Shown here in pieces: positions 1-64,000 of a DNA stretch of 64,000 bases. This stretch comes from Amoebophrya sp. A120 (Eukaryota; Protista; Dinoflagellata): the NCBI GenBank assembly GCA_905178155.1, contig CAJINV010000006.1:2892658-2956657 (forward strand). Reading direction: 5' to 3'. The notes under the pieces are model-generated. The model saw only the letters and a list, made by a program, of their open reading frames with translations, did not search any database and was not told the origin of the DNA. Every line of letters begins with the position of its first letter. Position 1 is the stretch's first letter. The position numbers and the translations under genes are program-made.

Positions 1-209
1 TATCCAAGGAAAAAACTGTGTAAGTGTAATTTTCTTGGAGGAATAGCATCACAAGTTTGCTCTGCATGACACGGAAAACCTGTCATGCGTAGCTAGTACG
101 TGAAGACACGTACGAAAAGAGCCTCTGATGCACATCCAGCATGACAAGTGTAACAGTTTTGCACTTTCTGCATCACAGACCTACACTCACATAGTTTTTG
201 TCTTGCATA

Positions 210-3200
210 GGCATCTCTAGTCGAAGGCGGAGAACCGGAATTAGCGGTGGAGGAGTTTATCGGCGCTTGCATGCGACTATGAGATGATGAGAGCACAAGA
301 ACCTCCTATTTCCCTCATTTCAAGGAGGGCACCATGAGTACCAGGAATAGAAACACCGCTTAGCTACATGGACCTTGTGCAGCATGACAAGTTCTTGTAC
401 TTCCTGCGCCGTTTGATGATGTCCGGGATTTATTGTCATGCAAACTGCGCCAAATGAGTTATTATTATACAGCAACTGGATTTGGCACTTTGCATGACAT
501 CAAATGAGGGCCGCCGTGGGGGAAAGTTGTGCAATCTGATAGCGACTCAAGGGCGAGGCGAAGTCGAAGGATTCGTTTATCGTGCAGTTGTCGGTCATTC
601 AGGCGACGGAGAAAATCGAATTTCTCGGGAAGACCACGGAGAGATGCAAGAGGTGTTCTTGGAATCATGATTTTTTGTTATACTACGTTGTATCAAGTTA
701 CTTAATATTTTTCGCGGCCCGCGCCCTTGACATTCATGCTTATCAGGGGACCGACACCGAGGAAAAATTATGGCCGCTACTTTCTAGTTATGGTGGCGTC
801 AACGACGCTTTTTTCAAGTATGCTGAAAATTTTGATATGCATTTTTTTTCGCATGACGATTCGGGTTCCGAGCACTTGGGCGACACTCGAAGACATCGCG
901 CCCCGTTCCCACAGGGCCTGTGTCTATCAGCTTGGAGGCTGGCCACGTCAAGCTCCTCCGGGGCCCACTTCGTGGAGGGCCCGCCGTGTGGCATTCGCTG
1001 TTGGCGAGGCGCCACGGCGTCCCGAAGTGCACCAAGGGGCGCGCCCCTATGTGTTGGCGATGCGCATGCCCCGCCGCGCGGGCACACTTCGAGCAAGTAG
1101 AGGCGTTGCACAGGTTGGGCAAACCTCGACGATGCCGCGCAACATTGGGCCGCGTTTTTGGTTTCCCATCGATTCGGCGCGCCCACGTTCGTGGCGAAGG
1201 CTTTGCGGATGCGCCCTCCCTGTGCGCGACCGCATAGACATAGTCGGTGGGCCCGCCGCCAATCGCGAGCGCGGCGCCTGTGCGAGTTCAGTCCCCGCGG
1301 CGCCGCCCGCCCGCCGGGCCGCCGTGCAGCCCGCCGAAGCCTTTGCCGGGGTATGCCCCCGCGGCCGCGCAAGCCTGCCCGGCCCCGCGCGACCTGCCAG
1401 GCGACTGCGGGCCAGTAAATGCACTACCAGGAAAGCGTCGGCGGCAAGCCCCGGGGGCTGCCTCCGGAAGGGGTGAAAAGATGCCCCCAAAAAAAACGCG
1501 AAACCCCAGCGAATGATGCCCCTCAAAGAGGTCCCCAAACGTCCCGGAGCAATTGCCCGACGCCGGGCAGAGAATTCTCCGGAAATTGCGCCGAAGGACC
1601 TCTGCCTGTGCTTGGGGTGCCTCGGAAATAAAAGACAACAAAGCTGAAACGGGCCGCGCCCCCCCTGCAGGAGCCGCCGGTAAGTTGGCCCGAGCGCCGC
1701 CGCCAGGGATTTTGCTTCGCGATAGGCGGCACTGGCGCCTGTCAAGGGGGCGCGCACAGATTAGCGAGAGCAAAATGTTGGTGGTGTAGGGTCCACGCGC
1801 TTTGGCGGGCCAGGGTTTCCGGCCGTGTCCGGAAAAGCTGGCCCCCGTCCGGCCTTTTCTTCCAAGGTGCATTTTTTGGCATTATTTTCGCCCACTGCGC
1901 CCAATGTCTTCGCCGCTGGTATGTCGGCAGGGGTTTCCATAGATAGAGGAGAGACGGGGGGCCAACGAGGAAACCTTGGGCGGATGTCGGGAGGCGCCCT
2001 CCCTCCCCGAAATGATCTCAGACAATGCGCGCGGGCCAACACGGCGGGCCTGTTCATGGGCGTCTAGCTTGGCTCCCCTCTCATTGGGCCTGCGCAATCA
2101 AGTGCGCGGCCCGCTTCTGCAGTTTCATTGCCCGAATGCGCACGGGCGGAAGGGCGGCGCATTTCCAAAAAATACGCATAGAAAAATTCTCAGCATACTT
2201 GAGAAAAGCGTCGTTGACCGGGCCATACTAGTACGCAATCATGACGTTTAGTACAAAGAGAATCTTCCGTGTCTTGAGCACTTACTTAATACTGAAGGCA
2301 GAATTTTTGATGTGGCGCGTGTTTCAGATACGGTCTGTGTTTGTTTTTTTGTTTTTAACTGCAAATTTCTGGTCGATGCTTTTCAAGCATGCAAAATGAA
2401 AATCTTTTTATGAAACTTATTCAGGTTCATTGACGTTTCCCGGGGCTTAGTAGACCGCATGGATGTCAGTACCCCCATAATATATTTGTATGCCAGTACA
2501 CGAAGGGCCCTGCCCCTTCCTGTCCTAAAACAAGCGCCACATACAAATCGCCAGTGCATATAAAATGGGCAGTTTGTCTGGCCCCTTCTGGTCCCGCCGG
2601 ACCCTTCCAGCACTGGCCCGGCCGTCAAGTACGGGGCCCCAGTAACTACTGGAGGTCCCGTACGCAACTGGTCCTACGATGCCCCTGCGCCCTCGTTTTA
2701 TATTGCCCTGGTTTGGTCCGACTGCAATACGTGGCTGCCTAGCTAAAACAAAACAGCCACTCAGTGAAAAACATTGAAAAAAGCGCTACGCCTCGGTCTT
2801 CTCCATTTTCAGTAGACTCTGCAGCAAGAGTGCTTTGCTAAAGGAGCGAGAGAATTCTGCTAGCTACCAAAGCGCGCACGCGAAACAAACTCGGCCCTTG
2901 TATGTTTTCGAAGCGCCGCCTGCAAGCGTGCCGCCACCGCCTGCTAACAAAATATCGATCCGCAATAGTTCCTCACCGCGCGCGCGCCGCTAGTTTTTTT
3001 GGTTTAGCTCCCCTTTTCTCCGCTTGTGTCGCTCCTTGTGCGCAGTGCGCGCTCGGCAAGCCTCCCTTTGCGCTCTCCTGTTGTTCCGCGGAGCGATCTT
3101 TTCGCGCGCGGTGGATTGTGGCCTGCTTTGCGTAGCAATTTGCTGCTCTGTCACACTCACCACCAGCTTTTTATTCGCTTTTCTTGGACCATACAACTCC

Positions 3201-6200: not shown

Positions 6201-9200
6201 CAAGAAGGATGCCGAGGCCAGACCAGTCAACCAAAAGGATATATCTTTTCAAAGATATATTTTTTTCAAACGAATACTTTCGCAATATTTTCGCCAATTC
6301 TTTGCCTTTTTTATGCTTTTGGTTTCTCTTTTTCTTATTCTTTTATTTCTTTTTTCTTTTCTCTTCTTTTCCTTTGTATTTCTCCTTATCTTCGTCATCT
6401 CTCCGTCCTCCCCTATTCAAGTGAATATTTTCAATCAAACGAATATTTTTCGTGTTCTTTCTCTCCGAGCTCAGATAGATGGCCCTTTCGTATGTTGTAG
6501 GTACCCTTCGCGTACTGGGTGCCCTTCGTGTACTGGTTCACATGCAAAGTGAAAATCTTTTTATGAAACTTATTCAGGTTCATTGACGTTTCCCGGGGCT
6601 TAGTAGACCGCATGGATGTCGTCCTGAAACGGCTGCTAGGAATTGCAAGGAATCTTCGATCTGGACGTCTGGAAGGTGGCTGCAAGACTTGTCTCAGGCA
6701 GTGATTTTGCATGAAGTTTACGCGTGATGTCTGTGATGTATGCCGTAGCATCTACTTCTTCGCGGATCTTGATGTGAGGAACTTATCTGGTAACCAAAGC
6801 GTGCGCAAGCGCCGCTCATCCATCACAAACGCAGCGCGAAGGCTTTGCCGTTGCCATATGGGAGGGACTCGAGAGTATGCAAACACTCGCAAAATCGAGC
6901 ATTTCCCAGTGTGTTTTGCCTTCAGAAAGCGGATCGGGCAGAATTTGAGGGAGTTTTACCGAAAGCAGCCAAAACAGCAATTATCAAGCGGGGAGAGCGT
7001 AAAAAAGAGCAGTTTTATTGCTCCGCCCGGTCTGAATCTGAAAAAAGATAGTGGCATTTTCGGCAAGGGCCGATGGTGTGATGCGTTTTATAGCGGAAAG
7101 TGCGTCACTTCCGGGCAGCTTCAGTCGCTTAAAAATTAAAAAAAAGGGCTTAAGAAGTGTGTTTTTTCACAGCATGCAAGCGGGCGACAAAATTTACCGA
7201 TTTTCTCCAGTCCCCGGAAGACGCTTAGAAATTGAAAAAAAACACGAAAAAAGTTACATTTTTCGCAGCGTGGAAGCGGCCGACAAAATTTACCGATTTT
7301 CTCCAGTCCCCGGAAGCTGCTTGAAAATTGAAAATGACAATTTTTGCTGAAAAAGCAAAAGCCGCTTACAAATTGCCGCTCCAAGACGGTTTTTCAAATT
7401 GTCACACGGCCCACACCGTCGAGATTGGAAGAAAAAATACAGCTACTAAGCCTGTGGAGGTGTGTCACACGGGCACGGTTTTCGTCCTCTCTGAGGGTCG
7501 CGACATGAGATCCCTCCTGCTTGGAAATGCCCGATCTGGGTGGCCCAAAAGGGCAGCCGGAAATGAAGAAAATTGCATCACTTTTTGAAATTCGTGTCTT
7601 TTACCTGGCCAGCGCGCCCCCGTGCGTAAGTAACGTTATGCGGGACGGTATAGTGGCCTCCAGAACAGGCTAGCGGTATACGGGCCAGGCGGCCAGTTTG
7701 TCATGCAGGGGCTAGAACGGATGCCCCGCTGCGAAATAGCAAACCGGATTTCGCCTTCAATGCTTATCGCAGGAGCCTGCGGGCCGCCGCGGGCGACAGT
7801 AGTTGTCCGCGGCCCTTTAGGGCCGCGGGGAAGTGATGTCTGTGATGCATGCCCTAGCATCTACTTCTTCGCGGATCTTGATGTGAGGAATAATTCCTGA
7901 TGCCCATACCGCCTGAGAACAAAAACTGCACCTTCTGCGTAAGTAGCAATTCGAATTCTCGTGCCCCTGGTGGAGCTGCTTGTTACGCGGCAACAAAACA
8001 AATTTTTGTAGAATCGAAACGCAGGAGCTGCATAATTACAACAAGTTTATTGCTGCATCCAAATGTCGTCCAGACCCAGATCGATTAAGAATTTGCAATG
8101 CATAGCTGCATATGAACTGCAAAAGTATCGTACTCGTATAAATGCATTACAAATTTTATCAGCATGAGAAATAAAATTTGTAATGCTGATTTGCCTTGAC
8201 AAAGAAATTTGTAATGCAAGACCTCGTTCGTCCCAAAGCCTCGCCATCGAGTTCGTCCCAAAGCCTCGCCATCGCTCTCAGAGCCTTCAAAACCTGTCCA
8301 GCCAGTGGATCCATTAAGCGGTCGACGAAATTGATACAACTAAGATCAGCACAGGAGCACTCAGGCAGATCACGAGGCAGGGTGAGGAACTTACAGGATC
8401 CCAAAAAAAAAAAATATACTAAGCAGGTAAAGACAAGAGGCTAAGAAGATCGAGCCCATCCAGATAGAGAAGCCCGGAGACGATCCAGACCAAAAAAAAA
8501 AAAAAAAAAAAAAAAANNNNNNNNNNNNNNNNNNNNNNNNNNNNNNNNNNNNNNNNNNNNNNNNNNNNNNNNNNNNNNNNNNNNNNNNNNNNNNNNNNNN
8601 NNNNNNNNNNNNNNNNNNNNNNNNNNNNNNNNNNNNNNNNNNNNNNNNNNNNNNNNNNNNNNNNNNNNNNNNNNNNNNNNNNNNNNNNNNNNNNNNNNNN
8701 NNNNNNNNNNNNNNNNNNNNNNNNNNNNNNNNNNNNNNNNNNNNNNNNNNNNNNNNNNNNNNNNNNNNNNNNNNNNNNNNNNNNNNNNNNNNNNNNNNNN
8801 NNNNNNNNNNNNNNNNNNNNNNNNNNNNNNNNNNNNNNNNNNNNNNNNNNNNNNNNNNNNNNNNNNNNNNNNNNNNNNNNNNNNNNNNNNNNNNNNNNNN
8901 NNNNNNNNNNNNNNNNNNNNNNNNNNNNNNNNNNNNNNNNNNNNNNNNNNNNNNNNNNNNNNNNNNNNNNNNNNNNNNNNNNNNNNNNNNNNNNNNNNNN
9001 NNNNNNNNNNNNNNNNNNNNNNNNNNNNNNNNNNNNNNNNNNTTTTTTAGCGCACCTTTATGATGGCCTTACTGTTGAAAGGATGGAGGGAGTTAAGTCA
9101 GTTTTTAGAACCCAGTCTGTTTATGCTAGCAAAGGGCTAGTGCGCTGTGGACCCCCAGGATCAGGTAGACGAGGTCCCAGACCGAAGTGGTAGGCGCTTA

Positions 9201-10853
9201 GGGTGAACTATGTATGTAGCGCTTAGGGCCCTTCCGTACGGCCAATTTGTATGCCCGCAACGGGGTTCGCCTAAGTCGGTCATTTATATGCAAGGCGTTG
9301 GGTTACCCGGTCGGCAGAGCCGATCCACAACGAACGAACGAAGACCTGCATTTATACGAGTACGATACTTTTGCACAGCATACTGCAGAGAATCGTGCCC
9401 CACCGGCCCGGCGTGGAAAAAAACCTCACCAAGGAGGAAAAATTCTTCCTGTATTACAGTGAAAAATGCCCCCACCCCCAAAGTTGCAGAAATTTGTGAT
9501 GCGAAATTTTCAAATGAAAACTTTTTGCCATGCATGAAAGGAGTATGAATCTTTCTGATGCAGAGTCTAGGCGTGTATCGCATCGCTTGCATGACAAGCG
9601 CCGCTCTTGCCGGGATCTTCTGCAATACAAACCTTTGCGATTCACGATTGGAAATCTGTGATGCTGATAGATGCAAGAGGGCGAATGTTTCTATTGGAAA
9701 GGTTTGCAACACAAATGCTCCCAATTTCGGGGGTGGGGGCATTTTTCATTGTAATATCCTGGTGCCGCAGTTTACCGACAAAGTCCCACTCTATGGAACG
9801 ATTGCACAACTCGCTCACTTGTTCTCGAGGCTTTGTCTATTCATCTTCCATTTTCTAATTTATTAGATTTACAAACGGCGACACGCAGAAGCAGAAGCAA
9901 CTAAAGAATTTTTTTTGCAACGGCCTCATCTGTAGTCGTGTGCAAGATGACAAATGCTATAAATGCATCATCAAAAATGAATAAAAAAGAGAGCGAAAAA
10001 ATAATCCGGAGGAGTCGTTGTGCAATTTCATACCCTCGGCGTGCCCTACGGTTTCGGGCGGATCGCGATGCAGAAATCAAAGGGCTACGACAGGAACTTT
10101 CAACCCAGATTCGACGAGCTCCGTCGTTTGGGCGGCCTCAACCAGGAGATCTCGCAGGCGAAGGCACTGTATCCTGTGCAAAAGTTGTATATATCGTACT
10201 AGTATAAACCGCATGACAAATTTCTCAGCGTGATGAAAAATGGAACTTGTAATGCGGATTTAGGTTGAGAAAAATATTTCTCATGCGTGACTGCGATTAA
10301 TAGTACGAGGTGCGATACGACTTTTGCAATGCATAGACTGCTATCCTGTGCAAAAGTATCGTACTCGTACAAATGCTAACGCAAGTCTTGCATTACAAAT
10401 CTTGTTTCCAAGGCAAATCTGCATTACAAATTTTATTTCTCATGCTGAGGAAATTTGTAATGCATTTATACGAGTACGATACTTTTGCACTGGATAACTG
10501 CGGATGAGTCGGAAGAAGAAGAAGGGCGTTGCGGTATAACCCGCTCAGCTGTTACAATCTCAAGTGTTACAATAGAATATGAAAATCTGTGATGCAAAAC
10601 ACACATGGCCTAGCCTACTCCCACAGCATTGCGCATGACAAGTTCTGGAGTCCCAAACTGCACGAGAATTATGTGGCGAAATTTGTAATGCAGAAAGTGG
10701 AACGCTGTGCGGGTCTGTCATGCTCATCATGCAACACAAAATCCAGATTCTATTGTAACGTTTGAGATGGTAACCAATTTGAGCGGTTCATATGCGGGGG
10801 AAATCACGGTGCTTGGGGAGGGAATTGGTGGTGGAAAGGAAAATTTGTACTGA
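210..10853 (+). CDS. 3' part of a multi-exon gene: EF-hand-like motif plus coiled-coil tail, probably the C-terminus of an ion-channel-type protein (5' end lies upstream of the window)
   Basis: Removing the TAT..ATA elements at 1, 278, 6637, 8111, 9452, 9792, 10170, 10342 and 10535, plus a large intron (~643 to ~6598, boundaries uncertain), gives ...ELAVEEFIGACMRLKGEAKSKDSFIVQLSVIQATEKIEFLGKTTER-LVDRMDVVLKRLQRIVPHRPG...VPLGVPYGFGRIAMQK...ALRMSRKKKKGVAGEITVLGEGIGGGKENLY, ending TGA 10851-10853. EEFxxxCMRLKGxAK resembles the post-S6 EF-hand region of dinoflagellate channels (recognised from memory, not searched). Confidence 0.65.
708..2281. mobile_element. Old GC-rich intronic insertion with subterminal inverted repeats
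   Basis: IR GTCAACGACGCTTTT(T/C)TCAAGTATGCTGA(A/G)AATTTT at ~798-833 versus ~2183-2218; flanking direct repeat TTACTTAATA at 698-707 and 2282-2291. Boundaries are uncertain. Confidence 0.55.
2468..6540. mobile_element. 4.07-kb non-coding insertion flanked by an 80-bp target duplication
   Basis: 2388-2467 equals 6541-6620 (1 mismatch). Perfect 16-bp asymmetric subterminal IR CCAGTACACGAAGGGC at 2493-2508 and 6521-6536; hairpin at ~2629-2664; internal degenerate repeats. Confidence 0.85.
3875..5285. repeat. Dispersed degenerate repeat: A/T tract followed by CGCGCGCTGCGCGCGCGCAG(A/G)CGCC, about 10 copies
   Basis: Copies near 3890, 3995, 4060, 4165, 4258, 4390, 4486, 4711, 4985 and 5262. Confidence 0.85.
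6782..7832. mobile_element. 1.05-kb insertion flanked by a 58-bp target duplication, nested in a family A introner (6637-8104)
   Basis: 6724-6781 equals 7833-7890 (2 mismatches). Hairpin CCGCGGCCC-TTTA-GGGCCGCGG lies just inside the right end; internal ~76-bp duplication at ~7160 and ~7258. Confidence 0.85.
8225..9340. mobile_element. Insertion with 7-bp TSD nested in a family B introner (8111-9382); spans the assembly gap
   Basis: TSD AAGACCT at 8218-8224 and 9341-9347; termini CGTTCGT...ACGAACG; poly(A) 8492-8516 precedes the gap. Confidence 0.75.
8517..9042. other. Assembly gap
   Basis: Run of N. Confidence 1.
9452..9756. mobile_element. Introner family C, representative (~305-335 bp)
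   Basis: TIR TATTACA(G/A)TGAAAAATGCCCCCACCCCC; repeat TCCTG/TCCTG. A close reverse-complement copy lies at 20817-21125; others at 28961 and 57968. Confidence 0.95.
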
Positions 10854-26087: not shown

Positions 26088-27340
26088 GTTTGATTGGTTC
26101 ATATGTAAAAATTCCGCGGTACGTTGTGTTAGCAGATGATCCGAGGTTGTAGTATTGATGGGGACAGTCCCGCTTTAGTACTTCTTTACAACCAATTGAT
26201 TCATTGTTGCACCCTGCGGCGCTGCTAGCGTGGTCGCAGCAATCTTCCTTCCGGGAGAACAAGAAGAAGATGTTTGGGGGGAGCAAGACAGAAAACTTTG
26301 TTGACACGACCAAGCGTGAGCTCACTGTTGTAGCGAAGATGATGAACGAACGACCAGATGAGTTGTACACGAAGCAAGAAGCAGAACCATGAAGCACCAA
26401 AAATGAAGTATCACGAGGAAAAATCCCCCCTCCCCATATCAAAAGGAAGTTTCTGATGCTGGATATCCGTATACAAATCAAATTTGTCTTGCAGTAGAGG
26501 GCACCAGGCTCCAACCAAGCCTGAGGAGAGAGCTTTTGGCCTAGGGGCTTAGCATGCGAGACGTCTATGCTGCAGGCCCAACAGCATCACAAACCGCCTG
26601 CATAATGCGGCAGAGCCTGTGGAGTTGTCTTTTTGCAAGACAGACGTGATTTGTGGTCTCAAATCAGCAAGACAAATTTCCGGAAGCATACCTTTCCGAT
26701 ATGGGGAGGGGGGATTTTCCCTCTCAATATGAAAATGAACACTACGATAAACCACGACCCCCGAGGACGTCGTGGTCCTCTTCTAAGGCGGCACATCTGT
26801 CAGCTACCTAATATGAGAGTGCACAACTCCCCCTCCCCCTCATTTGCAGGGCAGGAGCAGCAATACAAACACCAACACACTTGGAGCCTGTGCATGACAA
26901 GTTCACGGGCCGAGTGCAGTACTGTTTGGGCTCCTTCTGAAATTTGTCATGCAAACAGTTTCACAAGGCACCAAATGACTTGGGGACTTTGCGTCACATC
27001 TGAGGGGGAGGGGGATTTCGGGTTGTGCGCAACTGTTATACTCAACACTTACCCCCGGAAGAAGATCATGTTCAGACGTCGAACAGAAAAAAAGAAATAG
27101 AGCAACCGTGGTTAAGTAGACTCGTTTAGCACGAAAGAAAAGTGAAAATAAACCAAACTATTTTCATTTCAATCTATCGACTTCTTCTTTCTTTGCCTCT
27201 GTGCTTCACAGCTCGGTCGTCCTCTGTAGGGGAAGAACGTCTTGCCTACTAAGTGAAAATGTCGTTATTTCGGTAGCTTTTACCTCGTGCAAAATTGATA
27301 AACAGCGACAAAGTACTAGAATAGTGACGTTGCGTCTACG

Positions 27341-27740
27341 CTTGCGACAAGAAGGACAACTCGGTGACGATGCTTCTACGCTTGCGAAAAGAACTACAAC
27401 TCGGTGGCTGTGCTTCTCGTACGAAAAGACCTACAACTCGGTGGCTTTGCGTCTCTTGCGAAAAGAACTACAACTCGGTGGCTATGCTTCTCGTACGAAA
27501 AGACCTACAACTCGGTGGCTTTGCGTCTCTTGCGAAAAGACCTACAACTCGGTGGCTTTGCGTCTCTTGCGAAAAGACCTACAACTCGGTGGCTTTGCTT
27601 CTCGTTCGAAAAGAACTCCTCGGTGGCTGTGCTTCTCGTGCGAAAAGAACTCCTCGGTGGCGTTGCGTCTCTTGCGAAAAGAACTGCTCGGTGGCGTTGC
27701 GTCTCTTGCGAAAAGAACTGCTCGGTGGCTGTGCTTCTTT
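27341..27740. repeat. Minisatellite of about 11 units (mostly 37 bp, then 34 bp)
   Basis: Unit CGAAAAGA(A/C)CTACAACTCGGTGGCT.TGC.TCTC.T.; the last four units are 3 bp shorter. Confidence 0.95.
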
Positions 27741-35065: not shown

Positions 35066-35417
35066 CGCTGCGACTGCTCGCCTTGCTTGCGGCTGCTCGC
35101 CATGAAAGCAACTACATTGTGGCTTGCCTCACTTTTTTAAGAGGGGTTTTTTCGTAGATGGGTCTGTGTCATAGTAGATACTTTACCGCTTTTTTACTTT
35201 TCTTTTCTCCCCCGGCGCTAGTGTTATTGGTTTGCACACAAAGTTATCCCTACTTAGATAACGACAAAAGCTCACCCTGCAGCCGTCCCAGGAGCTCTTT
35301 GCTGTTGTCTCTCGGTAGTGATCGCTTTGTCCAAGTCGATTTCTGCTAGAGTTTGCTGAGTATGCGGCTACCGTTTTAGGCTATTTACATAGGGACGCCC
35401 TGCCCTTAGTTTCCCAA
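35066..35417. mobile_element. 352-bp insertion with 11-bp direct repeat inside a family A element (34840-35466)
   Basis: CATGACAAATC at 35055-35065 and 35418-35428; no TIR seen. Confidence 0.6.
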
Positions 35418-38400: not shown

Positions 38401-38604
38401 CATGGTGTACTTTCTCGTTTTAGTTGTGTAAGGGAGGAAGAGCTAGATTCATCTTCCTCTTTATCTTTTCAATAAAAGACCGTGCAAGTAGTTCTTGTAC
38501 AGCAGCGAGAAGGCGAAAGCGAAGAAATGATCAGATGTAAAAGTAGAAAAGATTTTCAACATCAGGAAAAGTAAAATATTTTCACAACAACAAATACAAA
38601 AAAA

Positions 38605-53600: not shown

Positions 53601-56600
53601 ATTGCAGTTGATAGGTCGAGGTGTGCCGCAAAGAGGGGAAGTACTTTAGCTTCCGCCCCGTGCTACCTGCGGACTTCAACCAGGACGCCCTCAAGCAGGA
53701 GGGCTATGAATTGCAAATATGTCTGGGTCTGGAAACTTGTGATGCTGGTTGGCGAATGATTAGGGTGCCGCAATTGCCGTTCCAGCATGACAAGTTTCTG
53801 AGGTGGTCGGTGTAGTCTATCCTGCATGACAAACTGCGTTTCCGCATGACAGAAAATTGACGCTCTTGGGTAACGTGCATGACAGACTTGAGAGTCATGC
53901 TAGTCGAGCATAACAAGTCTTGCATTCTTCCTGACCCAGACACTTTTGCAATCCATAAGGGCGGGGGGCAAACGATCGAGGACGTTACCCGCACGATTGT
54001 GAATCCCAATACGGTATCCAGTGTAAAAACGGGGCCCACGTCCCGTAGTCGAAATGGGAAATCGGCTAGACAAATCAACAAGCTTTGGCTGTTGTGCATG
54101 ACATCAAGTTTGGCCTCGTAGTGAAGTCGATCCTGTTTCTACTTAGCTAGTTTCGCAGCATCACACACAGAGCTACTAGCATATAATCACGCTGCTTCGA
54201 CGAGCATCACAAATTCAAAAACACGACTACAGAGAATGCTTTTCATGGGGCTCCGCATGAGAAGCATGCTTAATACCATGCAGATTTGCACGCCAAATAT
54301 GGGGTCGTGGGGACGTTTTTACATAGGATACACGGGCGAGGAGGAGACGGTCGTGGTGAAAAATTACGGGCAGCGCATGTTGCTGCAGAGAGAAGACTTG
54401 GAACATGTAATTCACTACGTTGAGCCCCCGGTTATCAAATGCAAATATCCCTGGATGTGGTCTGGAAACTTGTAATGCTGATTTGTGAATAGTGAATTCT
54501 CTGTAATTATGCACAGCCAAGCATGAGAAATATTTGCGCGGTTTCATCGTGTTCGTGTGTTTGCGCTGTCCGCATGACAATAGCTGCGTTTTGATGCTCA
54601 TGACAAGCAAGAGGGTCGTCTCTTCTTGGACACGCATCACAAACTCTCCAGTCATGCCAGATCGATATTTGCAATGCATACCGGTTATGAAATGCAAAAG
54701 CATCGCACTAGTATAATCGCATGACAAATTTGCTCAGTATTACAAATGAAATTTGTAATGCTGTTTTACCTTTAGGAAAGGGATTTGTCATGCACAAATG
54801 CGATTACTACGAGTACGATTCTTTTGCACAGCATACCGGTGCCCTCCAGTCAACTGCAAACGGTGACTATCCAAGAAAAAAAGATTGTACGTGTAACTTT
54901 ATTGCTGGAGGATCAGCATTACAAATAGAAATATTTCTGGCATGACAGCAAAAACCTGTCATGCGCAGATAGAACGTGAAAGCGCCCTTGAATGGACCCT
55001 AGAATGCATCCCTACTAGCATGACAGACGCAATCATCTTGCAAGCTGCCCATCACAAATTTACACTAACAGCGTTTTTATCTTGGATAGAGACGCGGGCC
55101 TCGTTTCTCAGCTTCCGCAACCGGGGCAAGGGGCATATGGGGCTCTCAACCGTTACATTCTCAACTGTTACATGAATTTGTCATGCAAAATTCCCATGCT
55201 TTGCCAGAGGATTAAGGTGCTTCGCATGACAAATTCTCGAAAGCAGGTCAAACAGCATCTAAATCTGTTGCAAATTTGTGATGCGAGACTCGCAAGCTTG
55301 CCCCTTTCCATATTGCTGCGCTGGCATCGCAAATTCGTGTAACAGTTGAGAATGTAACGTTTGAGAACGCCATAGGGCAGGAACAAATGCCCGAGCCGCC
55401 AGAGCCAAAGTATGAGGGTTCGTTGTTTTTGGTTTAAATTTGAGAAAAAAAGATAATATCGTGAAGCATCCAGCACCAGCATGCACATGCAATTGCAAAT
55501 TTCGTATCAAAAAAAATTCTGGAGAGGGCAGAGCCACAGAATAAATTCAATGTGGTGCATCATGATCATGATTGCTTTTGCTAAATAATAAAATAGACCA
55601 TCGAAATAGAACAAAAAAAAACCCGCCGCAGGATGAGCTGGAAAGAAGCCCAGAAAGCTATCAAAGTGAAAAAAGCCGCTATCCCATACTCAAAAGAAAA
55701 TTTGTGTTGCTGGACTTGTGTACATAAATGAGCTTTGTATTGCAGCAAGAGCTTGACTTGTGCTTGTCGGCATATTCTAAGCCCGTTTGGATAGTACGCA
55801 CCCGTCTAGCAGCTGAGCATGAGAAACAAGTCCGACAGAGGCGAAAACACAACATGACAGACTGGCTGTACAATGTGCCACATGGCTGCAGCCGTTGCCT
55901 TGTACGCAAGACAAAGCTGATTTTTTTATGGTCACAAATCAGCGTCACAAATTTCCTTTTCGACATGGGGACGAGGGGCGATTTTTCCTCACAATAAAGG
56001 CCATCGGTCTGCGAACCGACGAGGTGCTCGACTGCTACGACTGCCTCCTTATGGATTGCAAAAGTATTGTACTCGTATAAATGCATTACAAATTTACTCA
56101 GCATGAGAAATCAAATCTGTAATGCTGATTTACCTTAAGAAACAGATTTGCAATGCATGATTGCAATACGAGTGCGATGCTTTTGCATTGCATACTCCTG
56201 GAGGCGGACACGAACTGTCACGGGTATCAACTACAAATATCCCTGGATGTCTGGAAGAATGCACCTTGTGATGCTATTTTTGGATTCTAAAAAAATTTGT
56301 GTTGCATGACAAGCAATAGGAGTCCTGTCCAGTTCTTTTTGCCACGTGGAGAGGGTATTTCTCATGCAGGATAGCAGGTATCAAGAAGCACTCAGAAATA
56401 AATCTGTGATGCTAGGGCATACATCACAGCCGTCATGGGTCATGTCAGGTGTGCATGACAAACCTTCCAGGATCCCCAGACACATTTGCATCTGATAACG
56501 GGTTCGGCGTTACCACTGACGCCTTCATGGGTGCGCTGCTATCCTACGCGGGAGTTTTGTCTGCGCGAGATCTGTTTTCAATCGGGTGCACGATGCGCAA

Positions 56601-59185
56601 GGCGACGCCAAAGATCATTAACATCGAGGAGTCCTGCAACTTAGCCATCACGCATATGGAAGTGTCAGAATCGAAAGCGACAAAATCGAAAAATTTGTGA
56701 TGCACAAAATCGATGGCAGTTGGAGCCTCAGTCTCCAAGTGGCGCATGACAAATTTCGGGAGTACCCGAATCCAGTCTGTCATGCTGTTTGCCCAAGTAA
56801 GATTCCTCCTGTAGTGCTACTCTGGCAGCACATTGTATACCCCTAAACAGGCTCACAATCGGCCTCATTTGCCTGCTCCCCAATACAGGCCTTCAGTGCC
56901 CTACCTTTTATGCATCGCAAAATTTTCGATTTTGCCGATTTCGATCCTGACACATCCATAACGCAGTGCGAATTTATCGCGATCGCGACCGAAAGAATTC
57001 ATGCGCTGCTGTTCGAGCTCTACCAGGCAAAGGGAGCGCCGCCACCGGGGACCATGAAGCGCGTCACGAGCCACTATCAAAAGGAAAAATCCCCCCTCCC
57101 CATATCGAAGCGGTATGATTCCGAAAATTTGTGTTGCTGATTTGAGACCACAAATCACGTCTGTCTTGCAAGAAGACAAGTGCAGAGGCTTCCGCGCCAA
57201 TATGAAAGCGATTTGGCATGCTGTTGGGCATAGGGGGTAGCCGTTTGTAATGCTAAACAACTAGACCCAAACGCTCCTGCCTAGGCTGAGGATCTGGCTG
57301 CGATGCCTTACTGCAAGACAGCGCGCATTCGTGCACGGAAATCCAGCATCAGAAACTTTGTCTCGATGTGGGGAGGGGGGATTTTTCCTTGCGATAGCCA
57401 CAACAAGACGCGGCCGAACTACCCACGCCCCTACCCGTATGGACCTGTCAGGATTGAAATTGACAAAGTTCAAAAATTTGTGATGCATAAAACCGATACC
57501 ATTCGGAAGCCCAATTTCCAAGCGGCGCATGACAAATATCGACGTCAGCGAAATCCAGGTTGTCATGCTGCTTAGCGAAAGAAGGCATCCTTTGCCATAC
57601 TACTTTACCAGCTCTATCACAATTATCCCGAAACAGGCTCACGATCGGCCTCACTTGCAATCCCTGCAAGACAGTTACTTCGTGCCTTGCATTTTATGCA
57701 TCACAGATTATTTCAACTTGTCGATTTCAATCCTGACACACCCATAACCCGCCAGTCTTGGAGCCACCAAGGGGGGTTTTGTCAGTCGGTAATATTTCCA
57801 TATTGTTGTGCAGAAGTACCGAACATTCAATTTCAATCATCTTCTGCGAAAGTTGGTCTGTCATGCGGACTCAGTGCAATGGACTACATGAACTTATGTG
57901 ATTCATCATGAAACGCACTCAACACTCTCAGGCGTGCGTGTCAAAGATGCCGAAGAAGCAGCGAACCGTATTACACTGAAAAGTGCCCCCAGGAGGAGCC
58001 CTGAATTTGCAAAAGTTTCTGATGCAAAGTTTCATCCATAGTGGAAACTTTTTGTCTTGCACGAGAGGGCAGCTATCATTCTTTCTGATGCAGCAGTAGA
58101 TGCGGAACCTTCTAGGCGCCGCGTATGAAAGCATCTTTTGAATAGCAGGGCCGGCCCTTGCTGGGCCCTTTATTCGCAACACATATTTTTGCTGATCAGC
58201 ATTGCAAATCTGTCTTGCTGGTACACGCAATATGGGAAATGTTTTCATTGAAAAGTTTTGCAACACAAATGCTGCCTGGAGGGGGCAGTTTTCAATGTGA
58301 TAGACCGAAGAAAACGGCAAATGGAGGAGGAAGAGGAAGCCATGAAACTTATCAAATGGGAAAATCCCCCCTCCCCATATCGAAAACGAAATTTGTGATG
58401 CTGTATTTGACGTACGCAAGTCGACTTGTATTGCTAGAAGGCCAACAAGAAGATCCGCAGTTGTGGCCTCGTTTGGTGCAGACAAGTTGCCATGCTGTTT
58501 TCCATTTCCAGCTGCCTCCTGTTATGCTGAAGATGCAAGGCTTTCCCACTCCACCCAGCACTACAGTTGTCCGCATCTCTTCGCCCCTTCTAGCATGACA
58601 AAGCTGATTTGTGGCCACAAATCTGCAGCACAGATTTATTCCGTTTTGATATGGGGAGCGGGGATTTTTCCTCACAATAAAACTCGGAAAAACCACCTGG
58701 CATTTTGGCATGCCGGTCGGCCACAGTCGCGACCACTTATCACAAGAAAAAACTGTTTCACTGTGAACTTGTGATGCATAGAATGGAGCACAGAACGATT
58801 TGTCTTGCTACACCTGCAAGACATTGGATTTTTAGGCGTGTTTTCCCTTGGGAAGAATTTTCTGTATCATGTGTAGCAAACTTGTGATGCAGTTCTTGCA
58901 AAACCATCACAGTGAAACAGTTTTTTTGTGGGATACCATTACTACCCTATGCATTGCAAAAGTCTCGCACTCGTTTTGATGGCGGTCATGCATTACTTAG
59001 CATGACAGATGCAGATCTACTATCTTCTTTGTACGTTGACCAGCATTACAAACTCCCTTTTCCATGTTGGTCAACATCAAACTTGTGATGCGATTTCTAC
59101 TAGTACGATCCTTTTGCAGTGGATATACCCGGATCGTTTTCGCCGCGGTTCCGACGAATCCAGCGAAGACTCAAGCGACTTTTAG
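38605..59185 (+). CDS. Single-domain 6TM voltage-gated-like cation channel (ion-transport domain) with degenerate EF-hand tail; about 60 introns
   Basis: Hand splicing gives S1 VILISVILFCNLLYIGVDVD (~43.7-44.1 kb), S2 DFFFYLFFLAELIFRL (~50.0 kb), S4 MMLIRVLRLWK (~50.7 kb), pore FFTIAQMTSFDRWLTGIIRP (~52.1-52.4 kb), S6 LVVVIIQFGLVNNITGLFV (~52.7 kb), and stop TAG 59183-59185. The junction at ~42060-42470 is unresolved (TGA at ~42078), so the 5' part could be a separate gene. Confidence 0.75.
39331..39609. mobile_element. Introner family E, representative (~280-370 bp)
   Basis: TIR TATCCTGAGTAAAAACGT(C/A)CCCAC; repeat AGGAA/AGGAA. Others at 15850, 16679, 18847, 41483 and 54015. Confidence 0.95.
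46770..46992. mobile_element. Introner family L, representative (~210-225 bp)
   Basis: TIR TATGCAAGAAAAAAAC.(G)TGTAAGTGTA; repeat GACAC/GACAC. Others at 1-209, 43287, 48075, 54868 and 63928 (truncated by the window end). Confidence 0.93.
49641..49949. mobile_element. Introner family G, representative (~305-320 bp)
   Basis: TIR TATGG(A/G)AG(T/C)GTCAGG(A/T)TTGAAATCG; repeat CGCAT/CGCAT. Others at 18482, 25451, 46077, 48362, 56655 and 57438. Confidence 0.95.
50380..50615. mobile_element. Introner family K, representative (~230-280 bp)
   Basis: TIR consensus TATGA(G/C)AGTGCACAACTCCCCC; repeat GCTCA/GCTCA. Others at 278, 9792, 26812, 40813, 43042 and 46439. Confidence 0.9.
55136..55374. mobile_element. 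Introner family J, representative (~235-320 bp)
   Basis: TIR TATGG.G.TCTCAA.CGTTACATTCTCAACTGTTAC; repeat GGGCA/GGGCA. Others at 30604, 31734, 32072, 40528 and 50075. Confidence 0.93.
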
Positions 59186-60725
59186 ACTAGTATTGCAAGA
59201 AAATAAAACTGTTTCACTGTAAACTTGTAATGCAGAAACTGTATCTGAGAAGTGTTTGTCTTGCGTACACATGCAAGACAATGGATTTTTAGTCGTCGTT
59301 TCCCTTAGGAATCTCGCATGGTAAATTTTCTCTGTGATGTAGGACAATAAACTTGTGATGTAAAACTTGCAAAATCCTTACAGTGAAACACTTTTTTCGT
59401 ACGATAACTAGTTTCGGTCGTTTGTTGTATTGCGGAATAAAAAATCGCAGGACGTTATCAGCTATCCTGTGCAAAAGTATCGTACTCGTAGTAGTTGCAG
59501 TCATGCATTACAAATCTCGTTCTCAAGGCAAATCAGCATGACAAACTGGATTTGTCATGCTGAGGAAATTTGTATTGCAATTCATACTAGTACGATGCTT
59601 TTGCATTTCATATTAGCCTCGCGAACAAAGGCAATCACATTCACGTTCACAGGACACAACTTATTGTCCGCAAAAAGAATCTAACTAACTACATTAGCCC
59701 ACAGGGTGAGCAGCGGCCAGTACTAGCTGTACTAGCTTTTCCACATGTTGGCGATCTTCCAGATTCACTGTTTATTTCGCAATTGTTTGAATTAAATACG
59801 TTTCACAGCAAAAAAACTTGTGTATGATTTGAAGATTAGTCGCAGAAGTCGTGAGTATCATGAATAAAGCGATATTATGGTTTGAGAAACAAGTAATCTT
59901 ATCAGCAAAAATGTTGTTGTACTTTACTGTCGATGATGAAAAATGTACTACATTGAATGCAGAATGAAAGACCTGCACTATCCCCGATAGTACTGCTTAA
60001 TATCATTTGTTTAACCGTTTCCAAGAATTATGTCGCGGTAGTTATTTGTACAGATGAAACAGATAGTACTAGTAGTTTGCACCGCTGTTGCATCAGAAGC
60101 GTCCACCTACAGGCGCAGGTGCCTCAATCTATGTATGGGTTGAAGAAGCACAACTTCCACCACGCAAATGTATCATTGTAGAGATGAACCAGACGAAACA
60201 AGTTTGTGTTTGAGGACTGAAAAGAAATGAAACTGTAAAAATTAAGATTGAAAATATCAAACAAGACGCAGGACGGGTTTCTTTCTTGGTACCGCCGACG
60301 TAGTTGTACTACCCGTTTTGTCTAGAAGAGGCTTAATATCGTCCACCTCCTTTGTACTTGCAGCCCTCCACCTTGGCGTCGTGTTTTATTTGAGTGATAC
60401 ATCAACCGGAACAAGAGGCTCCCGCTATGCCGTGCGGGTGCCGTGAAGATGTTCTTGTTAGTAAAAATATCGGAGACATCAAAGTGGCCGCAAAAGTGGA
60501 TGCCTGAAGATAGATGGACAAAACAAAAACAGAGGAGATAGAAGTACAACTGTTCGAATTTATTTATGACGCCTTTACTATCTAAGGTAAGTGTCAGCAC
60601 TGTTCGGACGTGTAGAAGTAGGACCTGCATTTTATTTCCTTGAGGACTTCTTATGTCGTTATCGTTTTGCTACGCAAAATAAGTTGCTTCCAGAAATAAA
60701 TGTCAAACTGAAAAGAAACAAAAAG

Positions 60726-63700
60726 ATGACGATCATGCCCCGCAACGGCACTGGCAACCCCGCGAAGCATGCGGGGCACCACCAGCTGCAAAGCCTGGAT
60801 TTTTTTGCGGCTGGAGGAGCTCCTGGAGGAGCTGCCCTCGGCGGAGATCTGTTTTCCGGAGCAGCGAAGAAGACGCAACATGGGGCTTCTTCTTTTTCTA
60901 ATGCCTATAATGCGATCCCGAGCTGCGACACTACTAGTACCACCGACCTTCTCGCCAAACTGCACCAAATGAACCGAAAAATCAACGACTTGGGGCTGTG
61001 CAACAGCATATGCAATGCAAAACTATCGTACTAAGTACAAGTAGCAATCGCATGGCAAATAGATTCAGTATAAAATAAGACGTAAATTTGTGATGCTATT
61101 CTGCCTGAGCCTGTACGACAAAGATTCGTGATGCATAAGTGTACTTAAAAATCAGTACGAGTGCGATGCTTTTGCGTAGGATACAGCACCATTGACATCG
61201 ACAAACTGACTTACCTCTTCGAAAAGCACATCGACGACATCGACGAGCGGGGGGCCGTGAATGAAATGAGTCAGGATCTGTTGCAGGTGATTAATGATTT
61301 ACTGATCCATATCGCAGAACGAAAAAACTGTTCCACTATGGTGATTTTGCAAAATCTGCATCACAAGTTTGTTACGCATGACACTGAAAATCTGTCATGC
61401 GGGGTTCCTAATGTAGGGAAAACACAGCGAGAAATCCATTGTCTTGCGCCATGTGATATAGCAAGACAAATCATTCTGTCGTGCTCCATTCTATGCATCA
61501 CAAGTTCACAGTGAAGCAGTTTTCTCTTGCGATAATCCAGTTTATCTCCTATCAAGCTGCCTACGACCGACTCTCGGGCTATCAAAATGAAAAATCCCCC
61601 CTTCCCATATCGAACAGGAAATTCGTGATGTTGGATTTGCCTACACAAATCAGATTTGTCTTGCAGTAGAGGACTGCAGGCGGATGCAAAGCCTGCAGCG
61701 GGGCGCTTAGAGGTGGGCGCTTGGCATGGCAGGCGTCTGCCCTGTAGGCCTTGCAGCATTACAAACCGGCTGGATAATGCGGCGGGCTCGCTGCCTTTGC
61801 CCTCTTGCAAGACAGACAGGATGTGTGGCCGCAAATCTGCGTCACAAATTTTCAGAAGGGCGCGCTTTCAATATGGGGATGAGGGATTTTTCCTCACAAT
61901 ACGGGCAACGCGACAACCATCGAGAATAAATTGCTCAACGCGGAAAACTATGGCAATGGGAAAATCGCACTTATGCAGCAATCATTGCAAGACAAATCTC
62001 TTTTCCAAGCCAGATGAGCATGACAAACTCCATTTGTCATGTTGAGGAAATTTCTAATGCAGTGGCTACTAGTATACGAGTTCTAGGTCTAGTGCGATTA
62101 CTTTTTGCACTTCATACTTACAGCTTGGACGGCCGTTAGAAATCATCTTGGCGAATTTCTTGCGAATTTATAGGGGAAAGACCCGCAGCGCGGCCTGGGC
62201 ATTGGTGTCGGGCTTGGGATTCTGCGTTGCCAACGCATCTATGACGCCCCGCTCGTATTCCGCGTCTTTTTGGTGTCCCGACGAGGAGGGGCAAAACCAG
62301 CAAAATCTTTCCGCGCCGGGCGCCTTGGTCGGTGCCCGAGTTTTGGGCCCAGTGGCTGCACTAATGTGCCCCACCTAGGAGCACCATCGCGCCACACCGG
62401 GAACAGAGCTCGCGCGCGATGGACAGGGAGGGCATCAATTGCACCCCCTTCCCCCTGAGTTGTCCTCGAATGCCAAGAGTTTTGCTCTTGCGACAGGTGG
62501 GCACAAATCTGTGCATTTTGGAACACAAGGCCTCGGGACTTGGTCTACAGATTTTGCCTCTGCGAATTTAGAAAAGTGGCCCTCGCGAATTTCGCGCGAA
62601 TTTAGAAAAGTGGCCCTCGCGAATTTCGAAAGCCCGACCTGAAATTGCGTTTTTTTCTAAATTCGCGCGAAATTCGCGAGGGCCACTTTTCTAAATTCGC
62701 AGAGGCCGCTTTTGCAAATTCGCACGGGCCACCTTTGTAAATTCGCAAATCGAGAATACCGCCCTGATTGGGCATGCCTTTAAACGCTTAGCCCGATGGT
62801 GCTCTGGTGTTCCAACTTTAGCAAAATTCAAAAATTACATCTGAAGCCGCATGGTATGACGAGAAAGCGGCTGTGATTGTGCGTGACGGCGTTAAAAGTT
62901 TCGCATCTGGCGCAAAAAGCTGCTGCTCATAATTGACGCCGTGGCAGTTTCTAAGCCGGCGCCTGTCGCATCGAAAGCGAAGAGGCCCCCTCGATGGTGA
63001 GGCACGGGAAACGCAGCAAATTTCCTTGCGTCCCTCGGAAGGGCATGGGACCGCGAACAGGGTGGCCACGTGATTGGCCACCAGACGTTGGCGCTTGGGT
63101 TTGCGCTGAAATTCGCTTGAAATTCGCGCCTGCTCTTTCTAATGGGTGCCCAAGCTCTAACTTCATACGAGCTTGGCGCAGCAGAAGAGTAAGAAGCTGA
63201 AGGAAGCGGAATTGAGAATCGAGAAGGAGAGACGCGAACACACGGCGGAGAAGGAGCAGCTGGTGAAAAAAGTCCGGATTCTGAACACGACAAAAATTCC
63301 GGAAATGACCAAGAAGATCCGGTATGAACTGCAAAAGCATCGTACTAGTACAAATTGCATTACAAATTTTCTCAGCATGACAAATGCAATTTGTAATGCT
63401 GTTTTACCTTAGGAAGAAGATTTGTCATGCATATTTGCAATTAGTACGAGTACGATACTTTTGCACAGGATATCCGGCTACTGGAGAAGAAAAACGCGGT
63501 CTACGTGAAAGAACTATCGCCAGAAAAAACTGTTTCACTGTAAACTTGTAATGCAGAGAATGCATCTCACAAGTGTTTGTCTTGCTACACATGCAAGACA
63601 GTGGATTCTTAGCTGTGTTTTCCCTTAGGAACCTTGCATGGCAAATTTTCTCTGTCATGTAGAGCAAACCTGTGATGCAAAACCTGCAAAATCCTTACAG

Positions 63701-64000
63701 TGAAACACTTTTTTCGTACGATAAGAACTGAAGGAAACCGAGAAAAAAAACGCGGACCTGAAAATTTTGGTCCAGACGAGCGGCGTAAGTGCCGTGGGGT
63801 GTGCCGCTGGTGCGAAAAACGATTCGTCCACGACAGCACAGCAAAGAAACACTTCTTCTGCGCAACATCATGACTCTCTGTCCATCTCCCACCACACTCA
63901 CGCGCAAAAACTCCAGCCGCTGGCGCATATCCAAGAAAAAAAGATTGTCCGGTATAAGTTTCTTGGAGGAACAGCATGACAAATCCGTTCTCTGGCATGA
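60726..64000 (+). CDS. 5' part of a coiled-coil protein of unknown function (runs off the window)
   Basis: MTIMPRNG...DLLAKLHQMNRKINDLGLCNSTIDIDKLTYLFEKH...LAQQKSKKLKEAELRIEKERREH...RLLEKKNAVYVKELKETEKKNADLKILVQ after removing elements at 61009, 61310, 61580, 61949 (with the adjacent 62118-63160 insert), 63323 and 63515; another element starts at 63928. Confidence 0.7.
62118..63160. mobile_element. Non-autonomous hAT-like TIR element (8-bp TSD)
   Basis: TSD CTTCATAC at 62110-62117 and 63161-63168; imperfect TIR TTA(C/G)AGCTTGG...TTAGAAA; many GCGAATTT subterminal repeats; internal perfect 54-bp IR at ~62556-62706. The superfamily is inferred from TSD length only. Confidence 0.8.

Follow-up and report, generated by a model that had tools for sequence, protein, structure and literature searches.

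Transposon-like introners of Amoebophrya sp. A120 appear to be lost from RNA together with 5 nt of flank, at a cut site that is likely fixed

The window analysed here, 64 kb of DNA from Amoebophrya sp. A120, poses the question of how genes filled with transposon-like insertions yield continuous messages. Our curated catalogue of the window holds 120 elements, which make up 32,615 bases (51% of its length) and have a median length of 259 bp. Exact TAT..ATA ends are present in 112 of these and variant end triplets in 8; the 5-bp flanks are perfect repeats in 70, and in 110 they match at four or five of the five bases. The initial annotation, which had proposed about 120 TAT...ATA elements with 5-bp duplications, is borne out by these counts, and the flanks that it quoted were all found (GGTTG at 13053, CCCAT at 13822, CAGGC at 14379 and CTGCG at 16273). 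When TAT..ATA pairs were selected blind to the flanks, by inverted-repeat score alone, 95 elements were recovered, 84 of them with four or five matching flank bases. Three shuffled controls gave 2, 6 and 2 elements, none with a flank match of at least 4. The duplication length is sharply five: repeats are perfect at this length in 68 of 116 elements, at length 4 in two and at lengths 6–9 in none. A more permissive scan of element ends was used only to find the element at 36925 and to confirm that at 45038.

The claim of at least 12 families compares with 13 multi-copy groups and 14 singletons in one clustering and, when the threshold is changed, with 10 or 18 groups; about nine terminal-repeat types are distinguished by eye. 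Both orientations occur within families, and the internal motif GCAT[GCT]ACA is common to the elements, with 147 and 150 copies on the two strands. Like MITEs, the elements are short, multi-copy, bounded by terminal inverted repeats and without a coding frame. They also resemble the introners of A120 in having TAT-start inverted repeats, about seven variable bases and an A-run, in being repeated, and in the direct repeat at the exon-intron border. The class had been called known in Amoebophrya, correctly, as TAT-ended introners are published for A120 (PMC7789003).

The golgin-like protein P0003 and the channel-like protein P0001 (Table 1) each match a protein of Amoebophrya sp. A120 at 100%. 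A Pfam search of P0001 gave no match, and the C-terminal GRAB match of P0003 (E 8e-6) lies barely below the Pfam cut-off. A recount of the golgin coding sequence returned the same 35 elements, five with G on both flanks, that had been reported before. The statement that such elements serve as the introns of every gene was too broad, as six introns of the two annotated genes are of the ordinary GT-AG type, and some elements are located in a 3' UTR, between genes, or within a GT-AG intron (42093-42420, whose repeat has decayed to 2/5). The canonical donors start with GTA in six of six cases and with GTAT in four. Elsewhere in the window, the element at 8111-9382 holds a nested insert and an assembly gap, that at 36925-37221 is crossed unspliced by low-depth contigs, and a further element with its left end at 63928 extends beyond the window edge. 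The predicted gene around 28-34 kb may end in a MORN-repeat part; it is without contig cover in the four RNA-type runs, which gives no evidence either way.

Table 1. Coordinates of genes, elements and introns in the 64-kb window
Feature	Coordinates	Strand	Evidence or remark
Element from base 1 to 209	1..209	.	
Element with perfect repeat	278..541	.	
Long member, 1439 bp, perfect 5-bp repeat, own terminal-repeat type	789..2227	.	GC-rich interior, no Pfam match
Six elements (8111, 9452, 9792, 10170, 10342, 10535), short predicted gene	8111..10792	+	
Golgin-like gene P0003, 1283 aa	12926..26087	+	35 elements; pieces of RNA-type contigs; annotated protein
Golgin element starts, first part	13053, 13358, 13641, 13822, 14379, 14956, 15278, 15624, 15850, 16273, 16679, 17303, 17543, 17909, 18220, 18482, 18847, 19328		
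Golgin element starts, rest	19644, 19974, 20169, 20431, 20817, 21183, 21881, 22361, 22761, 23072, 23560, 23977, 24280, 24717, 25038, 25451, 25845		
GT-AG intron, donor GTATG	14714..14888	+	Golgin-like gene
Element, repeat mismatches at positions 3 and 5	16679..16968	+	Protein permits only k=3 or 4
GT-AG intron, donor GTATC	24518..24673	+	Golgin-like gene
Two elements in golgin 3' UTR (26409-26729, 26812-27040)	26409..27040	+	Both missing from spliced contig
Elements 28019, 28961, 29879, 30245, 30604, 31511, 31734, 32072 and decayed 32729-33207	28019..33207	+	Predicted gene; introns predicted
Intergenic pair: 34840-35466, 627 bp and carrying an insert; 36925-37221, ending in GTA on the right	34840..37221	.	
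Channel-like membrane protein gene P0001, 1586 aa	38605..59190	+	57 elements, 39068 to 59125; 5666-nt spliced contig
Model intron: last left-repeat base, element 40528-40761, first four right-repeat bases; GT..AC	40527..40765	+	Joint 40526->40766
Intron around element 41483-41778, ends CT..CA, repeat mismatch position 4	41482..41782	+	Joint 41481->41783
GT-AG intron, 622 nt, donor GTAAA, contains element 42093-42420	42062..42683	+	Joint 42061->42684
Two elements (43042-43273, 43287-43495) flanking 8-nt micro-exon	43042..43495	+	Joint 43041->43496, 3 letters between
Intron around element 44394-44664, ends CT..AA, repeat mismatches positions 1 and 4	44393..44668	+	Joint 44392->44669; protein
Intron around element 45038-45271, right end ACA, repeat mismatch position 5	45037..45275	+	Contig loose end 45036 (two RNA-type runs); protein gap
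GT-AG intron, donor GTATA	45624..45916	+	
Two elements sharing one 5-bp repeat, three CCGGT copies	54433..54835	+	Introns abut without exon; protein continuous across both
GT-AG intron, donor GTATG	55410..55631	+	
GT-AG intron, donor GTAAT	57789..57931	+	
Elements 59191, 59463 (past P0001 stop), 61009, 61310, 61580, 63323, 63515	59191..63723	+	

The RNA-type contigs come from four runs of one sample, available as contigs only and with their RNA status guessed by software. At all 16 single-element junctions in these contigs the transcript skips the element plus 5 nt. The annotated proteins are consistent with the same loss at 91 of 92 coding elements; the element at 58738 is annotated with a loss of +7. 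In the golgin 3' UTR, the record coordinates imply a donor 7 nt upstream for the element at 26812. One unbranched contig of 5666 nt is without any of its elements and also skips a GT-AG intron. Removal of the elements in silico opens a frame of 714 codons spanning 29 elements, and the gene of a close relative is in register with the A120 protein across six elements (85% identity). The elements are thus missing from spliced contigs, as expected, and joints ending in GT..AC, CT..CA and CT..AA agree with the earlier suggestion that removal does not proceed via GT-AG. The proposed comparison of G-TAT...ATA-G ends had presumed loss of the element plus 2 nt; however, the five G-flanked golgin elements lose the element plus 5. 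GT..AG-like loss of the element plus 2 nt with an extra codon is ruled out by RNA joints and protein junctions. Raw RNA reads from two further runs match only repeat pieces (90-95%) and are uninformative for these genes.

Elements with mismatched flanks reveal which bases of the repeat are kept. Positions 2-4 come from the left copy in all 12 informative elements (six RNA-supported) and position 1 does so in seven of seven; position 5 comes from the right copy in five of five (two RNA-supported). Only a cut keeping four bases of the left copy (k=4) fits all elements. The register is therefore likely fixed, the intron being N-TAT…ATA-NNNN with one base before the element and four after it. A single register for all elements is an assumption here, as each RNA junction alone gives a k of 4-5 (40527..40765 permits cuts at k=4 or 5) or of at most 4 (45037..45275, where the RNA carries the right repeat copy), and the constraints derived from proteins rest on the annotators' junctions. 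The register tracks the direction of transcription and not the orientation of the element (12/12). Where copies of one family are oppositely oriented, at 25845 and 54868, the left copy is kept in both.

With few exceptions, the elements lack the GT or GC donor and AG acceptor of U2-type introns. GT-AG is present in 2 of 95 elements at the k=4 register, in six at some register with a loss of +5, and at no such register in 89. Donor GT (30/95) and acceptor AG (3/95) are close to background in the window, with no drift toward spliceosomal ends, and the relative likewise has no preference for either (44/122 and 12/122). Selection toward GT or AG at element ends was rejected given this lack of enrichment. 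All 95 elements of this window set have T at +2, in part due to how they were selected. Terminal-base variants number 0 at +2 and 8 at -5 (p 0.008), with several variant strands called by eye. Strands were also re-called from frames (90/93 right) and by eye; a codon model trained with frame errors in one gene was right for 82/93 on the window. In five of the eight variants at -5 a U-G wobble is retained, so that pairing of the stem could account for them on its own. Past +1, the elements are similar to host donors in having U+2 and A+3 (N-TAT[CG] compared with GTA).

The A at -7 is changed in two elements compared with eight at the mirror position (p 0.11). As this first A of ATA is not invariant, with two A-to-G cases within long frames, it may not be the branch point, and the same holds for the internal motif, which occurs on both strands and at variable distance to the acceptor. 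Hairpin folding in 23 elements gives z from -1.1 to -14.1 against mononucleotide shuffles, with 22 at -3.5 or below. An Rfam search produced 0 matches.

The elements are A120 introners that are missing from spliced RNA-type contigs along with five bases of flank, the cut being likely fixed, and we consider it fairly probable that a relaxed spliceosome with an acceptor set by the hairpin removes them. Insertion duplicates 5 bp of the target, as empty paralogous sites show, presumably through a DDE integrase/transposase supplied in trans, for which GCAT[GCT]ACA is a likely binding site. In either orientation an element presents N-U-A-U-[C/G] at its 5' end, like host GUAU-type donors at +2 to +5, and the mismatched repeats suggest a donor cut one base ahead of TAT. 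Fold-back of the terminal repeats is predicted, and the 3' cut lies four bases beyond ATA regardless of local sequence, so the acceptor is likely set by stem distance and not by AG. Excision would proceed by lariat chemistry, although neither a lariat nor a branch point was observed. Since one left and four right repeat bases are lost with the element, the pre-insertion sequence would be restored without a scar; any exon site would then be allowed, which would explain the tolerance of insertions every 50-100 nt. In favour of a spliceosome, nearly all spliceosomal proteins are reported present. However, snRNA pairing would be hindered if the stem closes over +2 to +4, and U1 snRNA was not detected.

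Tentatively, one may also envisage that A120 erases insertions of one transposon chemistry at the RNA level in a general way, by a U1-independent or wholly non-spliceosomal pathway. It would read only U+2 and the fold-back stem, perhaps through a domesticated protein that binds GCAT[GCT]ACA, would measure 1 nt ahead of the stem and 4 nt beyond it, and would so remove any insertion of this class scarlessly in every sequence context. We regard as unlikely, if worth weighing, a spliceosome-independent, structure-guided cut and ligation, like that proposed for euglenid nonconventional introns, in which the hairpin base is read, cuts fall 1 nt upstream and 4 nt downstream of the stem, and the exons are ligated. 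The missing GT and AG preference and the strong predicted hairpins would suit such a route, as would the handling of an 8-nt micro-exon and of abutting introns, and the U1 snRNA that was not detected. Euglenid introns, in the available text of PMC11282704, have a comparably lopsided stem (+4..6 with -8..-6) and are released in circular form with no lariats. However, all three terminal pairs tolerate changes that break the stem, whereas U+2 is never changed, the element donors resemble host GUAU donors, and the responsible enzyme would be hypothetical. A25, with different repeats, likewise has T at +2; in Table S4 the predominant non-canonical motifs start with N-T in 9/9 for A120 and with T-T in 9/9 for A25.

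Excision from DNA in some life stage, in the manner of IES and with transcripts made from cleaned templates, had been raised by the initial annotation. The ends are transposon-like, removal is scarless, and joints in the DNA-type run are swamped by repeats, so rare element-free alleles could be present. However, in DNA-type contigs the borders between element and exon are spanned with 0-2 differences, at a depth of 24-40. A DNA cut would also follow the element or be symmetric, whereas the 4+1 register follows transcription with elements in both orientations, which makes this option very improbable. Short direct repeats with hairpins are a known setting for false introns. The elements match this setting and all RNA evidence is presumably cDNA-based, but we judge reverse-transcriptase template switching, in genes that are dead or otherwise edited, to be more improbable still. 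Template switching at the base of the stem should retain the right copy, whereas in the contigs positions 1-4 come from the left one. The transcription-linked register counts against such artefacts, as do the unbranched contig, the opened frame and the in-register gene of the relative. Ordinary GT-AG splicing near the ends with G bases of the duplication, for which the two and six of 95 elements could be cited, is refuted for the junctions mapped by their joint ends and has next to no chance overall, as 89 elements offer it no register and, for the five golgin elements with G on both flanks, no loss other than +5 is compatible.

The close relative carries the same element families, with perfect 5-bp flanks in 280 of 372. 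Ungapped empty paralogous sites were identified for three elements (at the relative's loci L009/L010), in addition to one weaker case (L068). The 5-bp repeat is therefore a true target duplication, as had been proposed, on the evidence of the relative and not of the window. Pfam searches agree that no candidate enzyme is encoded in the window, with 0 transposase or integrase matches in 26 ORFs. Six long members, taken from the window and from 582 kb of loci, yielded no convincing coding frame, the Pfam scan of long members having covered the ORFs of the window. A 5.7-kb stretch shared by L028 and L039, considered as an autonomous partner, is a host gene in two versions, and viral contigs gave 0 matches to one terminal-repeat pattern. 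All elements may depend on one integrase/transposase chemistry, which the shared internal motif fits. A 5-bp duplication is typical of LTR-type integrases, and Ginger and LTR-integrase transposons have TG..CA-type termini. The window elements have TAT..ATA termini instead, and none of the 26 ORFs has an integrase match.

While this element class is already known, the likely fixed register, the loss of the element plus 5, the transcription-linked cut, and the relative with its empty sites are added here. A fixed register turns 'variable splice sites' into a single rule for some 30,000 A120 introns without GT-AG. Under this rule the 5' base is given precisely, and the search for a lariat or circle junction is narrowed to a defined stretch. 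U+2 should be indispensable and the sequence at the acceptor unconstrained, and gene finders could place A120 junctions correctly. If the route is non-spliceosomal, it would be a novel mode of nuclear mRNA processing.

The A120 introners in the available text of Farhat et al. 2021 (PMC7789003) have TAT-start repeats, about seven variable bases, an A-run, hairpins and direct repeats, and are reported in 29,850 copies without an internal transposase. There the direct repeats are put at 3-5 nt, the splice sites vary and the border is left undefined, compared with 5 bp, loss of the element plus 5 and a single register that fits here. It also describes elements as strain-specific between A25 and A120, whereas the families found here are shared with a closer relative. 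Ginger-like TIR elements with an LTR-type integrase, considered here together with A120 family 38 of PMC12130899, have inverted repeats in common with the window elements, which end in TAT..ATA instead; the part of that paper available describes integrase-like frames in some A120 introners, and its own element as lacking Ginger termini and duplications. MITE-like introners of Micromonas, Aureococcus, Symbiodinium and Polarella, as far as covered by the available portions of PMC9860276 and PMC11282704, also have TIRs, a target duplication, unchanged mRNA length, and splice sites partly from the duplication. However, they carry or co-opt GY/GA-AG ends, whereas here +1 and the acceptor dinucleotide show no preference. 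In euglenid nonconventional introns a stem likewise joins the ends with more free 3' bases and duplication-like junction repeats, but the available text of PMC11282704 gives a Y|R junction consensus, a stem from +4 (here from +2), and release as circles. The introns of Fritillaria borealis, in the available parts of PMC11282704 and PMC13326754, are as here transposon-derived, with inverted repeats and duplications, and non-GT-AG genome-wide, although AG-AC/AG-AT ends are preferred, unlike in the A120 elements. Those introns are reported to be spliced by an altered spliceosome, with duplicated U2AF, a precedent for the proposed relaxed spliceosome in A120.

Single-exon queries returned two proteins at 100% identity, both named Amoebophrya sp. 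A120: the channel-like P0001 (1586 aa) and the golgin-like P0003 (1283 aa, with a GRAB match). The contigs of runs X4-X7, which come from one sample and whose RNA status is presumed, include a 5666-nt record that skips elements. Of 22 contig joints, 15 were displayed: 13 of them span a lone element, one spans two elements that flank a micro-exon, and one spans a GT-AG intron. At all 16 single junctions in these presumed-RNA contigs (the 13 joints and three read from piece coordinates) the element and exactly 5 nt are lost. The annotated proteins are consistent with element+5 removal at 91 of 92 coding elements, the sole exception being element 58738, which is annotated with +7 and adjoins a 12-nt spacer. 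Element removal also opens a 714-codon frame spanning 29 elements. The initial annotation called the elements the introns of every gene; this is too strong, since six further introns in the P0001 and P0003 genes are GT-AG, with donors GTATG, GTATC, GTAAA, GTATA, GTATG and GTAAT.

Mismatched repeats reveal which copy of the 5-bp repeat remains in RNA or protein; elements with a protein-silent mismatch and no contig cover are uninformative and are omitted from the counts. The left copy is retained at repeat position 1 in 7/7 informative elements and at positions 2–4 in 12/12, and the right copy is retained at position 5 in 5/5. Because retention of four left-repeat bases (k = 4) alone fits all informative elements, we infer an intron of the form N-TAT...ATA-NNNN, a common register drawn from the elements jointly, as no RNA junction taken singly pins k = 4. 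For element 26812, in a UTR, the acceptor lies at ATA+4 and the donor 7 nt upstream, judging from record coordinates only. As far as Table S4 of PMC7789003 goes, the predominant non-canonical motifs begin N-T in 9/9 cases for A120 and T-T in 9/9 for A25, which is independent support for the register; aligner preference may shape these motifs. There is no preference for GT or AG: at k = 4, GT-AG occurs in 2/95 elements, with GT donors in 30/95 and AG acceptors in 3/95, both near background. The earlier count of G-TAT...ATA-G at 5/35 elements was reproduced, but it tests element+2 removal, which is absent even at those five.

Elements and other features of the window and of the relative's loci
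Feature	Coordinates	Observation
Positions 2–4, left copy	21881, 25845, 39719, 40528, 41483, 44394	presumed-RNA contigs
Positions 2–4, left copy	16679, 25451, 47496, 48720, 49111, 54868	annotated proteins only
Position 5, right copy	26409, 45038	presumed-RNA contigs
Position 5, right copy	16679, 46439, 51084	annotated proteins only
Decayed element	32729-33207	left end TAC; repeat 1/5 matching, the sole matching base being the fifth, compatible with the register; +5 removal predicted to join an upstream 479-codon frame to a MORN-repeat frame (33144-34097)
P0001 tail	58738-59190	+5 rule at 58738 would give a last frame unlike the annotated tail; possibly a mis-annotated micro-exon
Abutting introns	54433-54835	insertion into an older target duplication, zero exon between; resembles a recursive splice site
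Intergenic element	36925-37221	right end GTA; unspliced across all or most of its length in low-depth contigs from three runs
Element with nested insert	8111-9382	short-family element; the insert, probably from another kind of transposon, has short inverted ends (CGTTCGT) and a 7-bp duplication and spans assembly gap 8517-9042
GC-rich stretch	2230-8100	no Pfam matches; numerous short CG-rich repeats; longer duplications ~2390-2465 with 6540-6620 and 6725-6780 with 7835-7890
Tandem array	27320-27760	units of roughly 30–40 bp, downstream of the golgin gene
Relative, long members	L023 505-1608, L032 632-1465, L067 3862-4492	perfect repeats, GC-rich or non-coding cargo; the L067 member (631 bp) has ends and a length similar to those of window 34840-35466
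Relative, transporter pieces	L004 550-1560, 1729-7650	ABCA-type-like by eye, opposite strands, meeting near an element; inversion or misassembly via repeats

With inverted-repeat score as the sole criterion, 95 elements were recovered from TAT..ATA pairs, 84 of them with flanks matching at 4–5/5 bases; shuffled windows each gave 2–6 elements, none so flanked. Ends paired by hand completed a catalogue of 120 elements (51% of the window), in line with the roughly 120 first claimed, and the four flanking repeats then quoted are all correct. The ends are exactly TAT..ATA in 112/120, and the repeat, which is 5 bp long and not 4 or 6, is perfect in 70/120 and matches at 4–5/5 in 110/120. Clustering at one threshold gave 13 multi-copy groups, most containing both orientations. 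Within elements the internal motif GCAT[GCT]ACA has 147 copies on one strand and 150 on the opposite one, against 3 and 2 outside, and it is present in 109/115 short window elements. A profile scan of window ORFs found no transposase, as the initial annotation had held, nor was one found among long members.

One terminal-repeat pattern matched at least 176 stretches in one metagenome assembly, and the matches listed gave a dataset of 168 loci (582 kb). One gene there shares 85% identity with an A120 protein and keeps its register through six elements when each is taken out as +5, so the source is a close relative and not A120. Among the matches listed, the relative's elements match window elements at 66–96%; the 5-bp repeat is perfect in 280 of 372 unique elements and matches at 4–5/5 in 336, and the internal motif occurs in 327/336. 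Using 441 junction probes, we identified three elements with ungapped empty sites in tandem paralogs, and a weaker fourth case. Since these empty sites carry a single 5-mer copy, the repeat is a true target duplication. Repeat mismatches at positions 1–5 are uneven in 95 spliced window elements (17, 9, 4, 8, 7), perhaps by chance, and flat in 122 of the relative's (4, 4, 4, 5, 7). One host gene occurs in the relative's assembly in two versions of 90% identity (L028 and L039) with an element common to both, so that two or more related strains, or else paralogs, must be present in this assembly.

The comparison of terminal bases covered 27 elements that combine a variant end triplet with a good repeat, 7 from window genes and 20 from loci; one of the 27 was not orientable. 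Elements 36925 (uncertain strand) and 32729 (decayed repeat) are excluded. The terminal pair shows 0 changes at +2 versus 8 at -5 (p 0.008), the middle pair 4 versus 4, and the inner pair 8 at +4 versus 2 at -7 (p 0.11). Changes breaking the stem are found at all three pairs. At -5, 5/8 changes preserve a U-G wobble, and strand assignment was by eye for several elements, so the pattern is suggestive of a constraint on U+2. Two elements within long frames have A-to-G at this position, which makes a branch point at A-7 less likely.

In the proposed scheme, chemistry included, a DDE enzyme acting in trans would insert the elements, whose ends are predicted to fold back; the donor N-UAU[CG] mirrors host donors from +2 onward, and the acceptor position would be given by distance from the stem. 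We consider removal by a relaxed spliceosome somewhat probable because of this donor likeness, because A25 has U+2 as well, because almost the full set of spliceosomal proteins has been reported, and because Fritillaria offers a precedent (PMC11282704; PMC13326754). The main rival, by analogy a non-spliceosomal route like that of euglenids, appears rather unlikely. Removal very probably occurs at the RNA level and is very unlikely to be an artefact: DNA-type contigs run intact across element borders, and template switching at the base of the stem would be expected to retain the right copy, the opposite of what is observed. Genes on the + strand hold elements in both orientations, with the left copy still retained in 12/12, and opposite-oriented copies of one family both retain it; the cut therefore follows transcription.

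The elements are real, and their class, recognised at the outset as one known from Amoebophrya, is already known for this genome because A120 introners are described by Farhat et al. 2021 (PMC7789003): 29,850 copies, repeats beginning TAT, 3–5 nt direct repeats and, in the sections seen, no transposase. In those sections U1 snRNA is undetected and the exon-intron border position is variable or unknown; Figures 3 and S19-S23 may contain more on register than their legends tell. PMC12130899 reports that A120 introners fall into several classes of transposon and that integrase-like frames occur in some of them. A literature search on Amoebophrya introners, non-canonical introns, repeats, lariats and the spliceosome, largely outside subscription journals, turned up no study in which the register is fixed or the chemistry tested. 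The known class is sharpened, and its mechanism of removal made testable, by a register that is likely fixed at 1+4, a suggested constraint on U+2, the presence of empty sites and the common motif.
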